Below are positions 1-47,268 of a DNA stretch of 47,953 nucleotides, one piece after another (position 1 is the first letter of the stretch; every line of letters begins with the position of its first letter). The notes below the pieces were generated by a model. That model worked only from the letters and a program-made list of their open reading frames with translations, was not told where the DNA came from and searched no databases. Origin of the DNA: Bacilli bacterium (lineage in GTDB: Bacteria > Bacillota_I > Bacilli_A > RF39 > UBA660); the NCBI GenBank assembly GCA_028700595.1, contig JAQVSJ010000001.1, positions 17,345 to 65,297 of the forward strand, in the 5' to 3' direction. A program made the translations under genes and the position numbers.

Positions 1-13
1 TTTAAATTTTTGC

Positions 14-66
14 AAAAAAAATACCAACCAAGAATCTTATACAAGACAAGAAACTTAATTGGTATA
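14..66 (-). terminator. Intrinsic-terminator-like hairpin plus U-tract (copy 1). It may be the whole body of a ~50-nt RNA.
   Basis: Minus strand: AUACCAAUUAAG-(21-nt loop UUUCUUGUCUUGUAUAAGAUU)-CUUGGUUGGUAU followed by U7. The stem is 12 bp including 2 G-U pairs. The stem begins about 5-7 nt after the -10 box. Confidence 0.6.
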
Positions 67-69
67 AAA

Positions 70-98
70 ATAATAACATGGATATTAATATATGTCAA
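70..98 (-). promoter_or_regulatory. Sigma-70/SigA-type promoter inside repeat copy 1 (TTGACA-N17-TATTAT, TG at -15/-14)
   Basis: The minus strand reads AAAAAGGTTGACA-tatattaatatccatgt-TATTAT. The -35 is at 98..93 and the -10 at 75..70. The architecture AAAAAGGTTGACA...ATGTTATT matches the rpsP promoter at 27254-27282. Confidence 0.55.
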
Positions 99-119
99 CC
101 TTTTTGTTTAAATTTTTGC

Positions 120-172
120 AAAAAAAATACCAACCAAGAATCTTATACAAGACAAGAAACTTAATTGGTATA
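120..172 (-). terminator. Intrinsic-terminator-like hairpin plus U-tract (copy 2). It is positioned to terminate the glyQS/orf164 transcript.
   Basis: Sequence identical to copy 1. It lies 50 nt downstream of the stop codon of the 222-716 ORF. Confidence 0.65.
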
Positions 173-175
173 AAA

Positions 176-204
176 ATAATAACATGAATATTAATATGTG
201 TCAA
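176..204 (-). promoter_or_regulatory. Sigma-70/SigA-type promoter inside repeat copy 2 (TTGACA-N17-TATTAT)
   Basis: Same hexamers and spacing as copy 1 (-35 at 204..199, -10 at 181..176). Two substitutions fall in the spacer and one just upstream of the -35; both hexamers are unchanged. Confidence 0.55.
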
Positions 205-221
205 CACTTTTTTGTAAATAT

Positions 222-716
222 TTATCTTTTTCTTGAATTTAATAATTGCAATCTCTCTTCCTTCGTTGGTTTTGCAATATCAATCATATATTTTTGATAT
301 ACAATATGTAATGCTTTATTAATCTTATAACTTTCTTTAAGACTGAAATTTTCAGTAGACATTTCTAAACATTCTTTAAATTCCTTTTTTAATTCTTCAT
401 ACGTCTTATGTCTACGATTATCAATATCATCTATATAATCATTAACGTCTTTCTTTAATTTGGATTTTATTATATCAAGACAACATTTAAATTGCATATC
501 TTTTTCCATCTTAATAATCTTATTTAAAGATGTATTAGACATATTCATCTTTTTTAATTCATTAATTATATTATCTCTTTCTTTAATTAATGTTTGTAAA
601 CTAGAATTAGCCTTACCATTATTTGTTGTTTCTCTAATATCATCACATACAATTATATATCGTTGTTTTAATTGTTCTATTTTAATCATATTCTGCTTAA
701 TTACTTCATTATTCAT
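222..716 (-). CDS. Hypothetical protein, 164 aa, Lys/Glu/Asn-rich, probably helical or coiled-coil
   Basis: Intact ORF directly downstream of glyQS on the same strand. I recognise no motif. Confidence 0.5.
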   Translation of the reverse strand: MNNEVIKQNMIKIEQLKQRYIIVCDDIRETTNNGKANSSLQTLIKERDNIINELKKMNMSNTSLNKIIKMEKDMQFKCCLDIIKSKLKKDVNDYIDDIDNRRHKTYEELKKEFKECLEMSTENFSLKESYKINKALHIVYQKYMIDIAKPTKEERLQLLNSRKR

Positions 717-2845: not shown

Positions 2846-3718
2846 CTAAAATCCTAGCTTAGAAAGATGCTTTTCCTTATCTCTCCATTTTGGAATACAC
2901 TTAACATATAATTTTAAAAATACTTTTTTTTGTAAAAGTTTTTCTATATCAATTCTTGCTTTAGTTCCAATTTCTTTAATTTTATCACCATTTTTACCAA
3001 TAATAATCTTTTTTATTCCTTCTCTTTCAACAATAATAAGAACATCTATTTCAATTAATTGCTTATTTTCTTTAATATTTTCAACCATACAAGTTGTTGA
3101 ATGAGGGATTTCATCATCCGTTAAATTTAATATTTTTTCTCTAACATATTCAGATATAAGAAATTCTTTAGTAACATCTGAAATACAATCATTTTCATAA
3201 TATTTTATCGGATCAACTATATATTTCTTAATAACACTTATTAGCACATCAACATTTTCGCCTTTTAATGCGGATATAGGTACTATTTCATTAAAATTGC
3301 CTAAATCTTTATATGCATCAATTATTTTCAAAATCATTTCTTTTTTTATAGTATCAATCTTGTTTAAAACCAATATTACAGGTTTATTCATCTTATTAAG
3401 TCTTTCAATAATAAATTTGTCTCCAGGCCCTATTCCATCACATACATCTACTAAAAATAGAATAACATCAACTTCATTCATACAACTGTATGCTCTATCA
3501 TTTAATACTTTACCTAATCTGTGTTTAGGCTTGTGTATTCCAGGTGTATCAATAAACACTATTTGATGTTCATTATCATTATATATACCTTGTATATTAT
3601 TTCTAGTAGTTTGTGGTTTATTAGATATAATTGCCAATTTACTTTTCATTATATTATTTAATAATGTAGATTTACCAACATTAGGTCTTCCAACAATACT
3701 TACAAATCCTGATTTCAT
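2846..3718 (-). CDS. era: GTPase Era
   Basis: G1 GRPNVGKST, G3 DTPG, G4 NKID, and a C-terminal KH domain. Confidence 0.95.
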   Translation of the reverse strand: MKSGFVSIVGRPNVGKSTLLNNIMKSKLAIISNKPQTTRNNIQGIYNDNEHQIVFIDTPGIHKPKHRLGKVLNDRAYSCMNEVDVILFLVDVCDGIGPGDKFIIERLNKMNKPVILVLNKIDTIKKEMILKIIDAYKDLGNFNEIVPISALKGENVDVLISVIKKYIVDPIKYYENDCISDVTKEFLISEYVREKILNLTDDEIPHSTTCMVENIKENKQLIEIDVLIIVEREGIKKIIIGKNGDKIKEIGTKARIDIEKLLQKKVFLKLYVKCIPKWRDKEKHLSKLGF

Positions 3719-27232: not shown

Positions 27233-27253
27233 AATATCCTCCATTTCTTTTAA

Positions 27254-27282
27254 AGAATAACATAATTAATTATTGCTGTCAA
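27254..27282 (-). promoter_or_regulatory. Promoter of rpsP (TTGACA-N17-TATTCT with TG extended -10)
   Basis: Minus strand reads AAAAAAGGTTGACA-gcaataattaattatgt-TATTCT. The -35 at 27282..27277 forms one arm of a palindrome. Confidence 0.55.
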
Positions 27283-27493
27283 CCTTTTTTGTTGACACAA
27301 AAGAATCATAAAATAAATCATCAGGCTTACATTTTAATATTTTAGATATTCTATATGCCATATCATAAGTTAACTTCCTCTTATTATTTTCAATTTGACA
27401 ATAATAAGACTTACTAATATCCAACATATTAGCCATTTGCATATGTGTATAATTATTTTCTCTTCTTTTTAAATATAATTTTTCAAATTTCAT
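27266..27493 (-). CDS. Small XRE-family helix-turn-helix transcriptional regulator (75 aa)
   Basis: ...HMQMANMLDISKSYYCQIENNKRKLTYDMAYRISKIL... is a typical HTH_3 pattern. Start moved to the ATG at 27493; the ORF-track N-terminus overlaps mltG. Confidence 0.75.
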   Translation of the reverse strand: MKFEKLYLKRRENNYTHMQMANMLDISKSYYCQIENNKRKLTYDMAYRISKILKCKPDDLFYDSFVSTKKVDSNN

Positions 27494-42747: not shown

Positions 42748-43254
42748 CTATTTTAACTTTTTATTTAACAACAAATCAAAATATCTTTTTTTTCTACATT
42801 TATATATATCACTATTTTGAATAACCATATCATCAAGTCTATCTTTTTCAAAATATGCAAGAACATTTGAATATTGCTTATTAATAACCATCAATAAAGT
42901 TGTATCATATATTTGATCATTTACTTCTAGCCATACATGACCTCCATTTGGAGATCCAGCTGTACCTTTTAATATTGGCAAAATTCCATTTACAATAGAA
43001 CAATTTTCAAACCCATAACTAAGAGTTTGCACAAAAAATCTACATCTCCCAATATTATATCCTTCCTCGAACGCTTTATTTACATCACCATTTACAACAA
43101 CATTACTTAGAGAACCAAAAATATTTATTTCTTCTTCTCCAAAATCTCTTATAAAATTATTATTTATTCCATATTTAATTTTATTATAAAATTCTGGGTT
43201 ACTTTCTAACAAATAATTTCTAAACTCTAGTGCCTTTTTCATTGTTGCTTTCAA
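42748..43254 (-). CDS. Hypothetical protein, possibly with a transglutaminase-like Cys-His-Asp core
   Basis: GRC71RFF ... GGH106VWLEVNDQIYD117TT resembles the C...H.W.E....D.T core of transglutaminase-like cysteine proteases. It overlaps the valS 3' end by 23-35 nt, depending on the start (43254 or 43242). Confidence 0.4.
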   Translation of the reverse strand: MKATMKKALEFRNYLLESNPEFYNKIKYGINNNFIRDFGEEEINIFGSLSNVVVNGDVNKAFEEGYNIGRCRFFVQTLSYGFENCSIVNGILPILKGTAGSPNGGHVWLEVNDQIYDTTLLMVINKQYSNVLAYFEKDRLDDMVIQNSDIYKCRKKRYFDLLLNKKLK

Positions 43255-45646
43255 TAACTATATTTTTAATCATATATTCTGAATCCTCCATAATGTTTTT
43301 ATTTATATTATTTATGTTTAATGTTGCTTTTAAGTCATCAATTGCTTCTTCAAAAGCAATATTTAATTCATTTGATAAACTAATATCAATACTCTCTACC
43401 AAAGTTTTTAACGATACATTTTTATTGGTTTTCTCTCCTCTAATATCACTAACAATATTAATTAATTGATCTCCATTTTCAATATTATTTTCAAAATTAA
43501 AATCTAATTTTTTAATCTCAGTTAAATGGATAGATTTATTATTTTTATATATTTCTTGAAATATTTCTTCAGTAATAAATGGAAAGAAAGGAGAAAAATT
43601 TTGTAGCAATTTATATAAAATCATATATATAGTCTTTTGACCAGAATATCTAGCATTATTTTTAAATTCTTCTGGTCTATATAATCTATGTTTTACTATT
43701 TCAATATAATTATCGCAGAAATTCCAAAAGAACTTTTCTAATATATTCAATCCTAGACCAACTTCATAATCATCCATATACTTAATATATTGTTTTTCCA
43801 TTTCATTATATTTGTTTATTATATACTTATCAAAATATTCATAATTATCAAAACTCTTATCTTCATAATCAACTAAATGCATTTCAATAAATCTACAAAC
43901 ATTATATAACTTATTAACTAACTTCTTACCTCTATCTAAAGTATCCATTGAGAATAAAATATCTGTTCCCAATCTTCCACTTCCTGCCCAATATCTAACT
44001 ACATCAGCAGAATAAGTATCAATTAAATCAATTGGTTCAAACTTATTATTTCCTTTACTTTTACTAATCTTTTCACCTTTATCAGCCATTACAAATCCTG
44101 ATATCATAACATTTTCCCAAGGTTTATTGCAGAAATGATAATAACTTTTAACAATTGTATAAAAATCCCATGTTCTAATTATTTCAGATGCATTACTTCT
44201 TAAACTCATAGGATTAAGAATATTTTCATAATTACTCTCTTCTTTATACTTCATATTAATTAAAGGAGTTAATGATGAAGTAGCCCAAGTATCCATAACG
44301 TCTTTTTCAGGTATAAAGTCATCACTTCCACATTCACATTTACTATTAGGTTTATCTATTAATGGATTAACTGGTAACTGTGATTCATCTGCAAATATTG
44401 GTTTACCACATTTAGAACAATACCATACTGGAAAAGGTACACCAAAATATCTTTGTCTCGATATACACCAATCCCACGCAACATTGTTTACCCATTCATT
44501 ATATCTAGAATGCATATATTCAGGATGCCATTTAATAGAATTCCCAATTTCAATAAACTTTTCCTTATTATCAATAATATTAATAAACCATTGATTAATT
44601 ATAGAATATTCTATTTCCTTACCACATCTCTCATGAACTTGTACTTCATGCTCAATTTCTTCAATCTTTTCAAGATAGCCATTATTATCTAGATCACTAA
44701 TTATAGCTTCTCTAGCTTCTTTAATCTTCATACCTTTATACTTATCAACTGAATCATTAATACACCCATCATTAGTAAATATATTCTTTAAAGGTAATTT
44801 ATATTTATTCCACCATTCAATATCAGTTTGATCTCCAAAAGTACAACACATTACAATACCAGTACCCTTGTCAATACTAACCTTTTCATCACCAATAATA
44901 GGTACTTCAATATTTAATGTTGGCACAATTGCTTTCTTACCAATAAGATGATTATTTTTCTTATCACTCGGATTAATAAATACAGCTACTATTGCAGGTA
45001 ACAATTCAGGTCTAGTTGTTGCAATAGTAAATACTTCATTATCAGATGATTTAAAATTAATATAATTAAAATTAGCATTAATAGTCTTAGTTTCTAACTC
45101 TGCTTGTGCAATAGATGTTAAACATTCATTACACCATAATGCAGGAGCTTTCTTATAATATGCTTTATTTTTATTTACTAAATCAAGAAATGACAATTGA
45201 CTTATTTTAATAGATGATGGACTAACAGTTTTATACAACAAATTCCAATCAGTACTTACTCCCAATTTACTAAATAAGTTTCTAAATTCTTCTTCATATT
45301 TATCAGTAATTGAATAGCACAATTTAGAAAATTCTTCTCTGCCAATTTCACTAGCTTTCTTACCACATTCTTTTTCTACTAATCTTTCACTAGGTAATCC
45401 ATTATCATCAAATCCGAAAGGATAAAAAACATTATAACCTCTTAATCTTTTATATCTAGCAATCATTTCAGTTTGAGAATAAGAAAATATATGACCAATA
45501 TGAATCTTACCACTTACAGTTGGTGGTGGTGTATCAATAGAAAAAACTTCCCTTTTATCTTGTTTAAAATCATATACTTTATTATTATTCCAATAATTTA
45601 ACCATTTGTTTTCTTTATCTTTAAAATCATATCTATTATCAAGCAT
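43220..45646 (-). CDS. valS: Valine--tRNA ligase, archaeal-type
   Basis: IDTPPPTVSGKIHIGH (HIGH), YPFGFDDNGLPSERLVEKE (archaeal-type rather than bacterial PGTDHAGIATQ), KISKS (KMSKS). A T-box with a GUA specifier candidate lies upstream. Confidence 0.8.
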   Translation of the reverse strand: MLDNRYDFKDKENKWLNYWNNNKVYDFKQDKREVFSIDTPPPTVSGKIHIGHIFSYSQTEMIARYKRLRGYNVFYPFGFDDNGLPSERLVEKECGKKASEIGREEFSKLCYSITDKYEEEFRNLFSKLGVSTDWNLLYKTVSPSSIKISQLSFLDLVNKNKAYYKKAPALWCNECLTSIAQAELETKTINANFNYINFKSSDNEVFTIATTRPELLPAIVAVFINPSDKKNNHLIGKKAIVPTLNIEVPIIGDEKVSIDKGTGIVMCCTFGDQTDIEWWNKYKLPLKNIFTNDGCINDSVDKYKGMKIKEAREAIISDLDNNGYLEKIEEIEHEVQVHERCGKEIEYSIINQWFINIIDNKEKFIEIGNSIKWHPEYMHSRYNEWVNNVAWDWCISRQRYFGVPFPVWYCSKCGKPIFADESQLPVNPLIDKPNSKCECGSDDFIPEKDVMDTWATSSLTPLINMKYKEESNYENILNPMSLRSNASEIIRTWDFYTIVKSYYHFCNKPWENVMISGFVMADKGEKISKSKGNNKFEPIDLIDTYSADVVRYWAGSGRLGTDILFSMDTLDRGKKLVNKLYNVCRFIEMHLVDYEDKSFDNYEYFDKYIINKYNEMEKQYIKYMDDYEVGLGLNILEKFFWNFCDNYIEIVKHRLYRPEEFKNNARYSGQKTIYMILYKLLQNFSPFFPFITEEIFQEIYKNNKSIHLTEIKKLDFNFENNIENGDQLINIVSDIRGEKTNKNVSLKTLVESIDISLSNELNIAFEEAIDDLKATLNINNINKNIMEDSEYMIKNIVIESNNEKGTRV

Positions 45647-45650
45647 ATAT

Positions 45651-46400
45651 TCACCTACTTTCTAAATATTCATTCATAAACTTTTTAATTTCTTTATACT
45701 TTTCAATAGTTTCTTCATTTTTAACAATTCCAATGTACCTATCAATTAATATATTAAAATAATCTTTCTCTTTAATAATATCATAACTATATTTAAAATT
45801 TAAATCAAAAAACATAGATACTTGCAATATTTTCATATCAGCACTAGTTTTAATATCATTAAAATTTAATGCTTTCTTTTCAAAAAAACTTTTATATACA
45901 TTTTCAGTTACATTATCTGTTTTAAAAACTATTGCTTTACTATCTTCTACATAATGCTTAAATATATCTAACTTATCTGCATCTCTTATTATCTTACAAA
46001 ATAATAATTCTTTCTCATCACATTCTCCAATTTCATGTTTATTATGATATAGAATACTTTTTTTAATTATTTCATCATAACTATTATCAACAATATAACT
46101 CCTTATATATTGATCCTTAAATAATATATCTATAGCATAATCACCATGATCAATACTCTTAGAATCATTAAAAGTATTGTATACCTTATATTGTTCAAAT
46201 CTACCAATATCATGTAATAAACCTATTAATCCAGCTATTAATACTTCTTCAATACTCAATCCAATATTCTTAGCCAAACTAATACAATTTTGCATTACTC
46301 TCTTAGAATGATAATATTTATAATTAATATTACTATCATTTAAATCATACTTATTCACAAAATTATTAAACTCTTTTTCTGCTTTATCAAAATTAACCAT
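45651..46400 (-). CDS. HD-domain phosphohydrolase family protein (249 aa)
   Basis: H...LLHDIGRF...DHG...H...RDADKLD metal-binding pattern. Start moved to the ATG at 46400 after AGGAGG; the longer ORF-track N-terminus is the T-box terminator read as protein. Confidence 0.7.
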   Translation of the reverse strand: MVNFDKAEKEFNNFVNKYDLNDSNINYKYYHSKRVMQNCISLAKNIGLSIEEVLIAGLIGLLHDIGRFEQYKVYNTFNDSKSIDHGDYAIDILFKDQYIRSYIVDNSYDEIIKKSILYHNKHEIGECDEKELLFCKIIRDADKLDIFKHYVEDSKAIVFKTDNVTENVYKSFFEKKALNFNDIKTSADMKILQVSMFFDLNFKYSYDIIKEKDYFNILIDRYIGIVKNEETIEKYKEIKKFMNEYLESR

Positions 46401-46416
46401 ATTACCTCCTATTAAA

Positions 46417-46613
46417 CAAAAAAAGCACCCTAAACTAAGGACGCTTATACGTGGTACCACCTTACATAGCAAAGCTATGATCTCAATTCGTAACGAGAAT
46501 AACGTTATATCCTAAGATATAATACTCACAAGCTACATTCATATATTTAATTATTAGTTTTCACCAACCACTAACTCTCTACAAAAATAAATATATTACT
46601 CCTCTTGATCAAC
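46417..46613 (-). promoter_or_regulatory. T-box riboswitch leader (probable Val specifier GUA) with terminator/antiterminator
   Basis: The minus strand shows, in order: GAUCAAGAGGAGUA (GA/K-turn region), AGAGA bulge, GGUUGGUGAAAAC distal loop, specifier loop GAAUGUAGC (GUA at 46536..46534), T-box sequence AAGGUGGUACCACG (46466..46449), then hairpin GCGUCC-UUAGUUUA-GGGUGC plus U7. Confidence 0.8.
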
Positions 46614-46617
46614 GTAT

Positions 46618-47268
46618 TTAATTTTTAATTTCAATTCCACCAAATACTACTGTATATGTAATAGTAATTTCATTTTTACTATCTTCTTTTTCAACCAAAT
46701 TCTTATTATCAAATGCACCAAATAAAGGTAAACCTTCACTTGTTACTTTATGTTTCTTAGGTAATATTAAATCTACTCCACCAAATAATACAAATACATT
46801 AATATGTCCTTTATTATCTTTTAACTTAATATCACTTAAATCAACAGTACATCCTCCAAATAAAGCAGTTACATCACAAGATTCAAATTCTTTATTAACA
46901 ACCTTTTCTTCAAGACCACCAAATAATGCACAATAACTCTTACCACCATTTGAATCTTTTTTAATAGTCTTTATATTTAATATTCTAACACCTATTAGTA
47001 CTATAATAACAGGAAACAATAAAAGACCTACAATACTCTTATCAAATATTTCTAACGCTAAAATTAATGAAGAAAGACCCAATAAGAACAATATTAAATA
47101 AAATATATCAACCTTTCTTCTTTCTACCATGCCTACAACTCCAATAATCAATACCAATGATGGAAGCAAGTATTCAGAAATTTCATTAAAATCAATTATT
47201 TCAGCATTCGATAAAAACAACAATATACCTAATATTATTACAAATAAACCCAATGTTTTCTTAATCAT
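46618..47268 (-). CDS. LiaF-like (DUF2154) membrane protein, cell-wall stress response family
   Basis: Four N-terminal TM segments, then a C-terminal domain with repeated LFGG/VFGG beta-strand motifs. RBS GGGAGG. Confidence 0.5.
   Translation of the reverse strand: MIKKTLGLFVIILGILLFLSNAEIIDFNEISEYLLPSLVLIIGVVGMVERRKVDIFYLILFLLGLSSLILALEIFDKSIVGLLLFPVIIVLIGVRILNIKTIKKDSNGGKSYCALFGGLEEKVVNKEFESCDVTALFGGCTVDLSDIKLKDNKGHINVFVLFGGVDLILPKKHKVTSEGLPLFGAFDNKNLVEKEDSKNEITITYTVVFGGIEIKN

Follow-up and report, generated by a model that had tools for sequence, protein, structure and literature searches.

A tandem array of promoter-hairpin units between orf164 and lepA in RF39-like Bacilli, a candidate array of minimal small-RNA genes

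We analysed a stretch of 47,953 nucleotides from an uncultured Bacilli bacterium of the RF39 group (GenBank assembly GCA_028700595.1, contig JAQVSJ010000001.1, positions 17,345 to 65,297; hereafter the window), whose left end carries, downstream of the glyQS and orf164 genes, a tandem repeat of 106 bp in which a near-consensus promoter is followed almost immediately by a hairpin and a run of T. The repeat is genuine, has solid statistical support and has been maintained in evolution; it is best classified as a new candidate array of small-RNA genes, restricted in lineage and unusually minimal in design, lying outside all described families. We give an even chance to the explanation that each unit is an autonomous mini transcription unit, transcribed as one member of a sibling array, whose product would be a short hairpin RNA. 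Three readings had been offered in a preliminary description made from the letters of the window (a small structured RNA in multiple copies, a duplicated terminator with a promoter for the following gene, and a genome-wide intergenic repeat). The first appears to fit best the comparative data, namely the joint inheritance of promoter and hairpin, the invariant promoter bases, the compensatory changes in the stem and a copy number of one to three. The second survives in part, the third found no support, and two points of anatomy (a loop of 21 nt and a position directly after glyQS) needed correction.

Anatomy of the 106-bp unit

Tandem Repeats Finder delimits the repeat at window positions 1-223, with a period of 106, 2.1 copies and 94% matches, in agreement with the duplicated module described previously. 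Positions 1-80 are identical to positions 107-186, and the five differences between the copies are located either in the promoter spacer (81/187 and 92/198) or upstream of the -35 box (100/206, 101/207 and 106/212), sparing both hexamers, exactly as had been noted. On the minus strand, on which all elements of the array are read, each unit is composed of A/T tracts (GCAAAAATTTAAACAAAAAGG), TTGACA, a spacer of 17 nt, TGtTATTAT, four T, a hairpin of 45 nt and eight T. In the unit closest to orf164 (unit 2), the promoter occupies positions 176-204 (-35 TTGACA at 199-204, 17-nt spacer, TG at 183-184 and -10 TATTAT at 176-181), with a predicted start at A171 or A169, and is followed by the hairpin (127-171) and the U-run (120-127). 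Unit 1 repeats this arrangement, with its promoter at 70-98 (-35 TTGACA at 93-98, 17-nt spacer, TG at 77-78 and -10 TATTAT at 70-75), a predicted start at A65 or A63, the hairpin at 21-65 and the U-run at 14-21. The two units are separated by the spacer GCAAAAATTTAAACAAAAAGG (99-119), whose phased A/T tracts lie at what we take to be the position of a putative UP element for the promoter of unit 1. An A-rich stretch (205-221) connects the stop codon of orf164 (222-224) to the first -35 box, and the first 13 positions of the window (GCAAAAATTTAAA, 1-13) belong to the following inter-unit spacer, of which the window edge leaves only the start.

Both promoters (204-176 and 98-70) match the consensus hexamers at 11 of 12 positions and combine them with a 17-nt spacer and a TG-extended -10, i.e., the sequence expected of a promoter for the housekeeping sigma factor; the TTGACA-N17-TATTAT with TG claimed earlier for each copy is indeed present. 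A perfect TTGACA, a 17-nt spacer and a TG-extended -10 occur together at just three sites in the 48-kb window, the two units and the S16 promoter, and the latter, to which the units had already been likened, is the only other such site.

The hairpin is identical in the two units (type I, AUACCAAUUAAG-UU-UCUUGU-CUUGU-AUAAGA-UU-CUUGGUUGGUAU) and is composed of a lower stem of 12 bp, a UU/UU internal loop, an upper helix of 6 bp and a 5-nt apical loop, CUUGU. The 12-bp stem had been recognized previously, but it begins 4 nt past the -10 box and not 5-7 nt, and the region above it, then taken for a loop of 21 nt, folds into the internal loop, the upper helix and the short apical loop. The tract of U7-8 corresponds to eight T, and the 5' A of the hairpin is a potential pairing partner for the first of them, as U. 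Within the window, the 45-nt sequence has exactly two occurrences (21-65 and 127-171), versus zero expected in shuffled sequences. Its fold (-18.5 kcal/mol, z = -7.7) is strand-specific: with A-C mismatches in place of the G-U pairs, the complementary strand does not get beyond -8.4 kcal/mol.

Together with its U-run, this hairpin is the strongest terminator-like structure of the window (-17.3 kcal/mol versus -11.9 kcal/mol for the next best), and all hairpin types that we identified (see below) combine a fold of -16.6 to -20.5 kcal/mol with U7-8, as intrinsic terminators do, transcript release itself being predicted. A simple consensus terminator scan of the window called no terminator at the units, owing to the internal loop of the stem and its low number of G-C pairs. 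The hairpin of unit 2 is the first terminator-like structure past orf164; it starts 51 nt past the stop codon of this gene, on the same strand, where an intrinsic terminator closing the operon would be expected. The second copy had been placed at the position of the glyQS terminator: the hairpin does lie where the glyQS-orf164 transcript must end, but orf164 intervenes after glyQS.

This anatomy suggests the following scheme. A strong promoter of the housekeeping sigma factor would start transcription at A65/A63 and A171/A169, at the foot of the 45-nt bipartite hairpin; as the stem begins 4 nt past the -10 box, the likely start sites lie at or inside the stem foot. The hairpin and U7-8 would then terminate the transcript and release an RNA of 48-52 nt, almost wholly one hairpin, with a 3' U-tail and without a single-stranded 5' tail. 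In Firmicutes, RNA decay depends on the 5' end, and an RNA that lacks a 5' tail and carries a strong 3' hairpin should be long-lived; the short hairpin RNA is expected to be stable and abundant. The hairpins of the units would also end the era-recO-glyQS-orf164 transcript, and lepA, the next gene, would be transcribed from its own extended -10 promoter past the last U-run. Presumably, the promoter fires, termination is efficient, and it is the short RNA, not the act of transcription, that is the selected product. This RNA has no obvious single-stranded seed and would therefore be likelier to act as a structured protein ligand or decoy, or through a loop-loop contact, than by seed pairing, although such a role is a guess on our part.

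Some additional observations concern the terminators and promoters of the window. Among its other hairpins followed by U-runs, the next best reaches -11.9 kcal/mol and most are below -9, which suggests that canonical intrinsic terminators are rare in the source organism. The unit promoter, the S16 (rpsP) promoter (27252-27289, minus strand) and the early promoter in the terminal repeats of Staphylococcus Kayvirus share the motif AAAAAAG(T/G)GTTGACA…CATGTTATT(A/C)T, and the terminal repeat of phage Stab22 (L105, 412-450) contains 18 consecutive bases identical to this promoter motif. The likeness looks like a convergent strong-promoter design and not homology. BLAST of the unit against phages gave matches to the promoter part only, in the Kayvirus terminal repeats, where no hairpin is present. 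We also rejected a 40-aa open reading frame (ORF) across the unit (85-207, minus strand), whose start and frame are not conserved in the other unit types or species; a protein-database search with the spurious translation of the unit, aimed at ORFs called across units elsewhere, gave no candidates.

Conservation of the array in three lineages

The sequence left of position 1, where further copies had been suspected, is accessible through other contigs (referred to below by their L numbers). All short-read contigs with orf164 break inside the repeat, and several other contigs span it with the arrangement glyQS - orf164 - one to three promoter-hairpin units - lepA. Assemblies of the locus derive from the samples SRR8925720, SRR8925766, SRR8925778, SRR11845623, SRR22315503, SRR27710307 and JGI 3300028602. 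In L097 (GCA_023392775.1), from the same species as the window, orf164 is followed by three units with a period of 104 and then by TGaTATAAT-N7-GGTGA-N4-ATG of lepA; two units precede lepA in L094, and L002 has three units. In the sister species L003 (GlyRS 82% and LepA 89% identical), two units precede lepA, and in a third lineage, L093 (orf164 86% identical), there is a single one. The copy number is thus 2-3 in this species, two in the sister species and one in the third lineage, these values being lower bounds as they come from short-read assemblies. Judging from the contigs of the same species, the window edge cuts the array, and the interrupted spacer would run on to one more unit with a different hairpin (type II), then to lepA.

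Each locus of this kind carries one to three complete units and, as far as sequence goes, loci with at least two homologous copies have a promoter and a terminator in each of them, as sibling small RNA genes do. Two junctions within the array deserve mention. In L095 (100-140), which comes from the same metagenome as L002, a type I hairpin is joined directly to a type II hairpin (…CTTGGTTGGTACCCAATTAGTTATTTCG…), probably an assembly chimera within the repeat. In L094 (2745-2770), the stop codon of orf164 is changed from TAA to CAA in one strain, making the ORF seven codons longer (171 aa), into the promoter of the first unit. The starts of contigs on the lepA side (L104 and L096) were discarded as evidence for transcript ends, about which they say nothing. 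As the next gene is lepA, we also rejected tandem P1/P2 promoters of the rRNA type serving an rRNA operon at the edge of the contig.

To delineate the distribution of the unit, we built a covariance model (R1) from six units (95 positions, 18 pairs) and fetched 80 related glyQS loci (1.43 Mb in all) from uncultured RF39-like Bacilli, including 'Clostridium sp. CAG:417' and 'CAG:1000'. The model detects units, at 95-110 bits, solely in the three closely related lineages; for the other 79 related species represented in this set, the glyQS regions gave no match at E < 0.4. The exact stem pattern has no match in 185,579 species-representative genomes and, in a metagenome contig collection that holds the sample of the source organism, matches this locus only. 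No further copy of the 45-mer is present in the window even with three mismatches, no further unit was found in 20 kb of the sister species, a degenerate stem pattern has no match in viral contigs, and BLAST of the unit against plasmids gave no match. More generally, a strong promoter at most 12 nt from a strong hairpin with a T-run is found essentially in these units alone in about 1.5 Mb of related sequence.

Three types of hairpins can be distinguished in the array. Besides type I, the type II hairpin (last unit in this species, first unit in L003) has a lower stem of 11 bp, the UU/UU internal loop, an 8-bp helix AUUUCGUA/UAUGAAAU and a CUUG loop, and the type III hairpin (second unit in L003, single unit in L093) has a lower stem of 11 bp, UU/UU, a 7-bp helix UUCUCGU/AUGAGAA and a CUUGU loop. 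All three share one architecture, i.e., a stem of 11-12 bp, a UU/UU internal loop, a stem of 6-8 bp and a CUUG(U) loop. Across 12 distinct variants, paired cells make up 96% of the total, versus 28-45% with slid partners; three pairs change on both sides (16 cells), a level reached by none of 500 shuffles. This covariation seems supportive rather than conclusive, the independent events being few and the hairpin types only three.

In the promoter, the -35 hexamer, the TG and positions 1-3 and 6 of the -10 box are invariant across the 12 variants; 7 of the 17 spacer positions and positions 4-5 of the -10 box are variable. A functional promoter would be expected to vary in just this way, and initiation is predicted at these sites. 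Between the two species that have it, the type II unit is 94% identical in its promoter half and 91% in its hairpin half, and the type III unit is 100% identical in both parts between L003 and L093; the third-codon identity of the flanking genes is 71% for glyQS and 66% for lepA. Since the single-copy lineage L093 already has the order promoter-then-hairpin, the repeating and inherited entity appears to be the promoter together with the hairpin into which it fires, and not a terminator together with the next promoter.

The gene lepA has its own extended -10 promoter, TGnTATAAT, without a -35 box, followed by a GGTGA Shine-Dalgarno sequence, and both are conserved in five relatives that lack the unit (L047, L049, L098, L099 and L102). 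The unit promoter is therefore not needed for lepA. In all three lineages with units, the last U-run is located exactly 23 nt upstream of the lepA -10 box. The unit-less relatives offer simpler versions of the same region. In L047, L049 and L098, glyQS is directly followed by a short terminator or by nothing, then by the extended -10 promoter of lepA. L099 has a 47%-identical orf164 homologue between glyQS and lepA, with a weak A/T hairpin and T8 and no unit; L102 and L103 have insertions of other genes, and each of these genes comes with a simple junction of a terminator followed by a promoter. This series suggests that the lepA promoter is ancestral and independent of the unit, and that orf164 came first, the promoter-hairpin unit having been added later in a narrow clade and then amplified. 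In the more distant relative L102, two adjacent genes upstream of lepA are followed by near-identical terminators (CGATATAAAtTAATATATCG at 1296-1330 and CGATATAAAaTAATATATCG at 2436-2468), each with a T-run, which shows that terminator sequences are locally reused in the clade.

Alternative explanations and known systems

Several observations weigh against a dedicated small RNA. The predicted RNA consists of the terminator hairpin only, in which just the 4-5-nt apical loop and the UU/UU internal loop are unpaired. Complementarity of the loop to mRNA leaders, proposed in the preliminary description as a check, was not above shuffled controls: for the apical parts against 51 translation-initiation regions (48 kb of the genome), the best duplex was -13.3 kcal/mol, versus a shuffled median best of -14.2 kcal/mol. 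The covariation rests on three hairpin types, hence on few independent events, and a plain terminator is equally expected to show such conservation of its hairpin. The third-codon identity of orf164 is unusually high (84-87%), and part of the conservation of the unit may come from a recent shared ancestry of the segment and not from selection. The copy numbers derive from short-read assemblies, which break or collapse within the repeat. Finally, Rfam 15 gives no match for the unit at the gathering threshold, the sole match in the window being a T-box located elsewhere, and in a permissive search the best match reaches 18.6 bits against a threshold of 78.

Part of this evidence would suit a terminator or insulator cassette that also feeds lepA, with the short RNA as a by-product, a minority possibility that deserves to be taken seriously. 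Such a cassette could act by partial read-through, giving the lepA mRNA a protective 5' hairpin, or by handing over the polymerase, after termination, to the -35-less lepA promoter 23 nt downstream. The constant gap of 23 nt between the last U-run and the lepA -10 box would put a terminating polymerase on this promoter, the terminator of unit-less relatives also abuts the lepA promoter (12-24 nt), and the region upstream of each following promoter is made up of the U-run and A/T tracts of the preceding unit. The hand-over also has a precedent, sliding and re-initiation of bacterial RNA polymerase after termination having been shown in vitro, with support in vivo (PMC6978322, PMC6978380, PMC11364550). 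However, re-initiation in published single-molecule work is often in the reverse direction, and natural cassettes of such a kind are not known. Moreover, the apparently ancestral lepA promoter is sufficient in the relatives, read-through from the first unit must cross up to three strong terminators, and no signal-sensing sequence is present between the start site and the hairpin. The second reading of the preliminary description, in which a duplicated terminator carries a promoter for the next gene, shares this fate: the hairpin does lie at the end of the glyQS-orf164 transcript, but its action as an attenuator is disfavoured by the promoter of lepA itself and by the lack of room for an antiterminator. 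For the same reasons an attenuator or riboswitch in a lepA 5' leader is disfavoured: the transcript would begin at the stem, there is no antiterminator or sensing sequence and no Rfam match, and lepA has its own promoter.

In an extreme version, which we consider highly improbable, the array would be a 'polymerase launch pad', producing a throw-away 50-nt RNA while the bound polymerase is handed from unit to unit and finally to the -35-less lepA promoter. If true, the copy number would set the output of lepA, and the array would be the first genomic element dedicated to exploiting re-initiation by bacterial RNA polymerase after termination.

It is unlikely, in our opinion, that the array merely reflects neutral local duplication, in which slippage or unequal crossing-over multiplied a junction of terminator and promoter within an AT-rich spacer prone to recombination, the promoters being fortuitous or decaying and termination being the only function. 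Strains of one species do differ in copy number (two versus three), promoter halves are homogenized within a genome (97% identity between units whose hairpins are just 76% identical), terminators are locally reused at adjacent gene ends in L102, and the unit's -10 region (CATGTTATTAT) is similar to the promoter of lepA (CATGTTATAAT). On the other hand, the perfect -35 box and the A/T tracts of the unit, which are missing from the lepA promoter, are invariant in the 12 variants from three lineages while the spacer varies, two distinct unit types are each kept across species, and the promoter-then-hairpin order of the single-copy L093 is not the outcome expected from duplicating a terminator-promoter junction. 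A dispersed REP-like repeat family that happens to be in tandem here, the third of the earlier readings, is barely credible: short-read contigs all break inside the unit, as they do at dispersed repeats, but the tandem structure itself explains these breaks, and only this locus was matched in the window, 20 kb of the sister species, the 80 related loci and the genome, metagenome, viral and plasmid searches (complete genomes were not scanned).

Returning to the small hairpin RNA, the closest known kind is probably that of tandem sibling small RNAs, such as PrrF1/PrrF2 of P. aeruginosa, OmrA/OmrB of E. coli, AbcR1/AbcR2 of Agrobacterium and Sinorhizobium and some of the streptococcal csRNAs (reviewed in PMC4211561). 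Like these, the units are homologous copies arranged head to tail in one intergenic region, each with its own 'orphan' promoter and terminator; their number and arrangement differ among related taxa, and such arrays arise from local duplication. Unlike these siblings, which are 80-150 nt long and use single-stranded seeds against defined mRNA targets, the RNA of the unit is predicted to be about 50 nt long, with only a terminator hairpin and no seed, and the unit has no sequence or Rfam relationship to them.

Other systems resemble the unit in one or another respect. In enterobacteria, the promoters of DapZ and MicL lie within the 3' end of a gene and the terminator of the mRNA is reused, the functional seed being located upstream of the terminator hairpin. 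The promoter of the unit likewise lies just past the end of the upstream gene, and the terminator would be common to the small transcript and the mRNA; the unit differs in having 0-2 nt before the hairpin and in being tandemly repeated. RNA-OUT of IS10 and the copy-control RNAs of plasmids are short, very stable, single long imperfect hairpins that act via their loop and are antisense to a gene on the opposite strand. The predicted RNA of the unit is also short and essentially one imperfect hairpin, but nothing is encoded opposite the unit, and its context is chromosomal, without mobile-element genes. In phage lambda, the strong constitutive promoter PR' lies close to the terminator tR' and produces a short RNA ('6S RNA'), read-through occurring only with the Q antiterminator; a small gene is located just upstream. 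The unit resembles this arrangement in its promoter closely preceding a terminator and in the small gene (orf164) immediately upstream; it differs in the lack of phage genes and of any similarity between orf164 and Q proteins, in the downstream gene having its own promoter and in the repetition of the units. A type III toxin-antitoxin array, in which short RNA repeats under one promoter are located upstream of a gene for a ToxN/AbiQ-like endoribonuclease, does not fit: the units are located past the 3' end of orf164, every one of them carries a promoter of its own, and orf164 has no match to ToxN or to any other Pfam or NCBIfam family. Finally, as in an ordinary junction between operons, a hairpin and U-run end the upstream operon and a promoter follows, and the relatives have exactly that before lepA. 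Unlike in an ordinary junction, a near-consensus promoter lies 4 nt before each hairpin, and this order is conserved, including in the single-copy lineage.

If transcribed as predicted, the units would be among the smallest autonomous RNA genes known, with the promoter flush with the terminator, and would represent a new, unannotated RNA family, of which two or three diverged versions were amplified and kept in small-genome, uncultured, gut-type Bacilli with almost no other strong terminators. They would then offer a compact natural test case for the function of a terminator-only RNA and for the influence of termination on an adjoining promoter. If they are not transcribed, the array would be merely an unusual duplicated terminator of local interest.

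orf164 and the gene neighbourhood

The G+C content of the window is 24%, and nearly all genes are encoded on the minus strand. At its left end, the gene order on this strand is era (2846-3718), recO (2090-2833), glyQS (721-2106) and orf164 (222-716), then the repeat, which begins 8 nt past the stop codon of orf164. The glyQS gene encodes a single-chain glycyl-tRNA synthetase and belongs to the co-directional string closed by the first hairpin of the units; orf164 has the same orientation and is located 4 nt downstream of it.

Although an orphan, orf164 is a genuine gene. Its product is a helical protein of 164 aa in which four cysteines and the motifs RHKT and NKALH are conserved, and for which structure prediction gives an all-helical model of low confidence (pLDDT 63). 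Its homologues form only three to four clusters among more than five billion proteins; the protein belongs to no Pfam or NCBIfam family and has no match in the PDB by sequence or fold. The gene is always inserted between glyQS and lepA, upstream of the units where these are present, and it exists without units in L099. We considered orf164 as a partner of the unit (antiterminator, toxin or RNA binder) and rejected this possibility: it has no family, and its 47%-identical homologue in L099, where the unit is missing, indicates that the two are not obligately linked. Our searches found nothing tying orf164 functionally to the unit.

Elsewhere in the window, ARAGORN detected no tRNA or tmRNA. The T-box leader (RF00230, 112.5 bits) is located at 46434-46621 on the minus strand, upstream of an HD-domain-like ORF (45651-46472) and of an ORF of 808 aa resembling valyl-tRNA synthetase (43220-45646); the glyQS gene of the same genome has no T-box of its own and sits within the era-recO string. 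Another tandem repeat, with a period of 132 bp (11793-12263, 3.6 copies, 96% identical, with weaker flanking copies), lies inside an ORF of 807 aa (9996-12419, minus strand). This repeat is coding and not an intergenic array, and encodes a hydrophobic repeat of 44 residues (…GLGIKYLFIGIYKLLYYVFKYLIFGFKY…).

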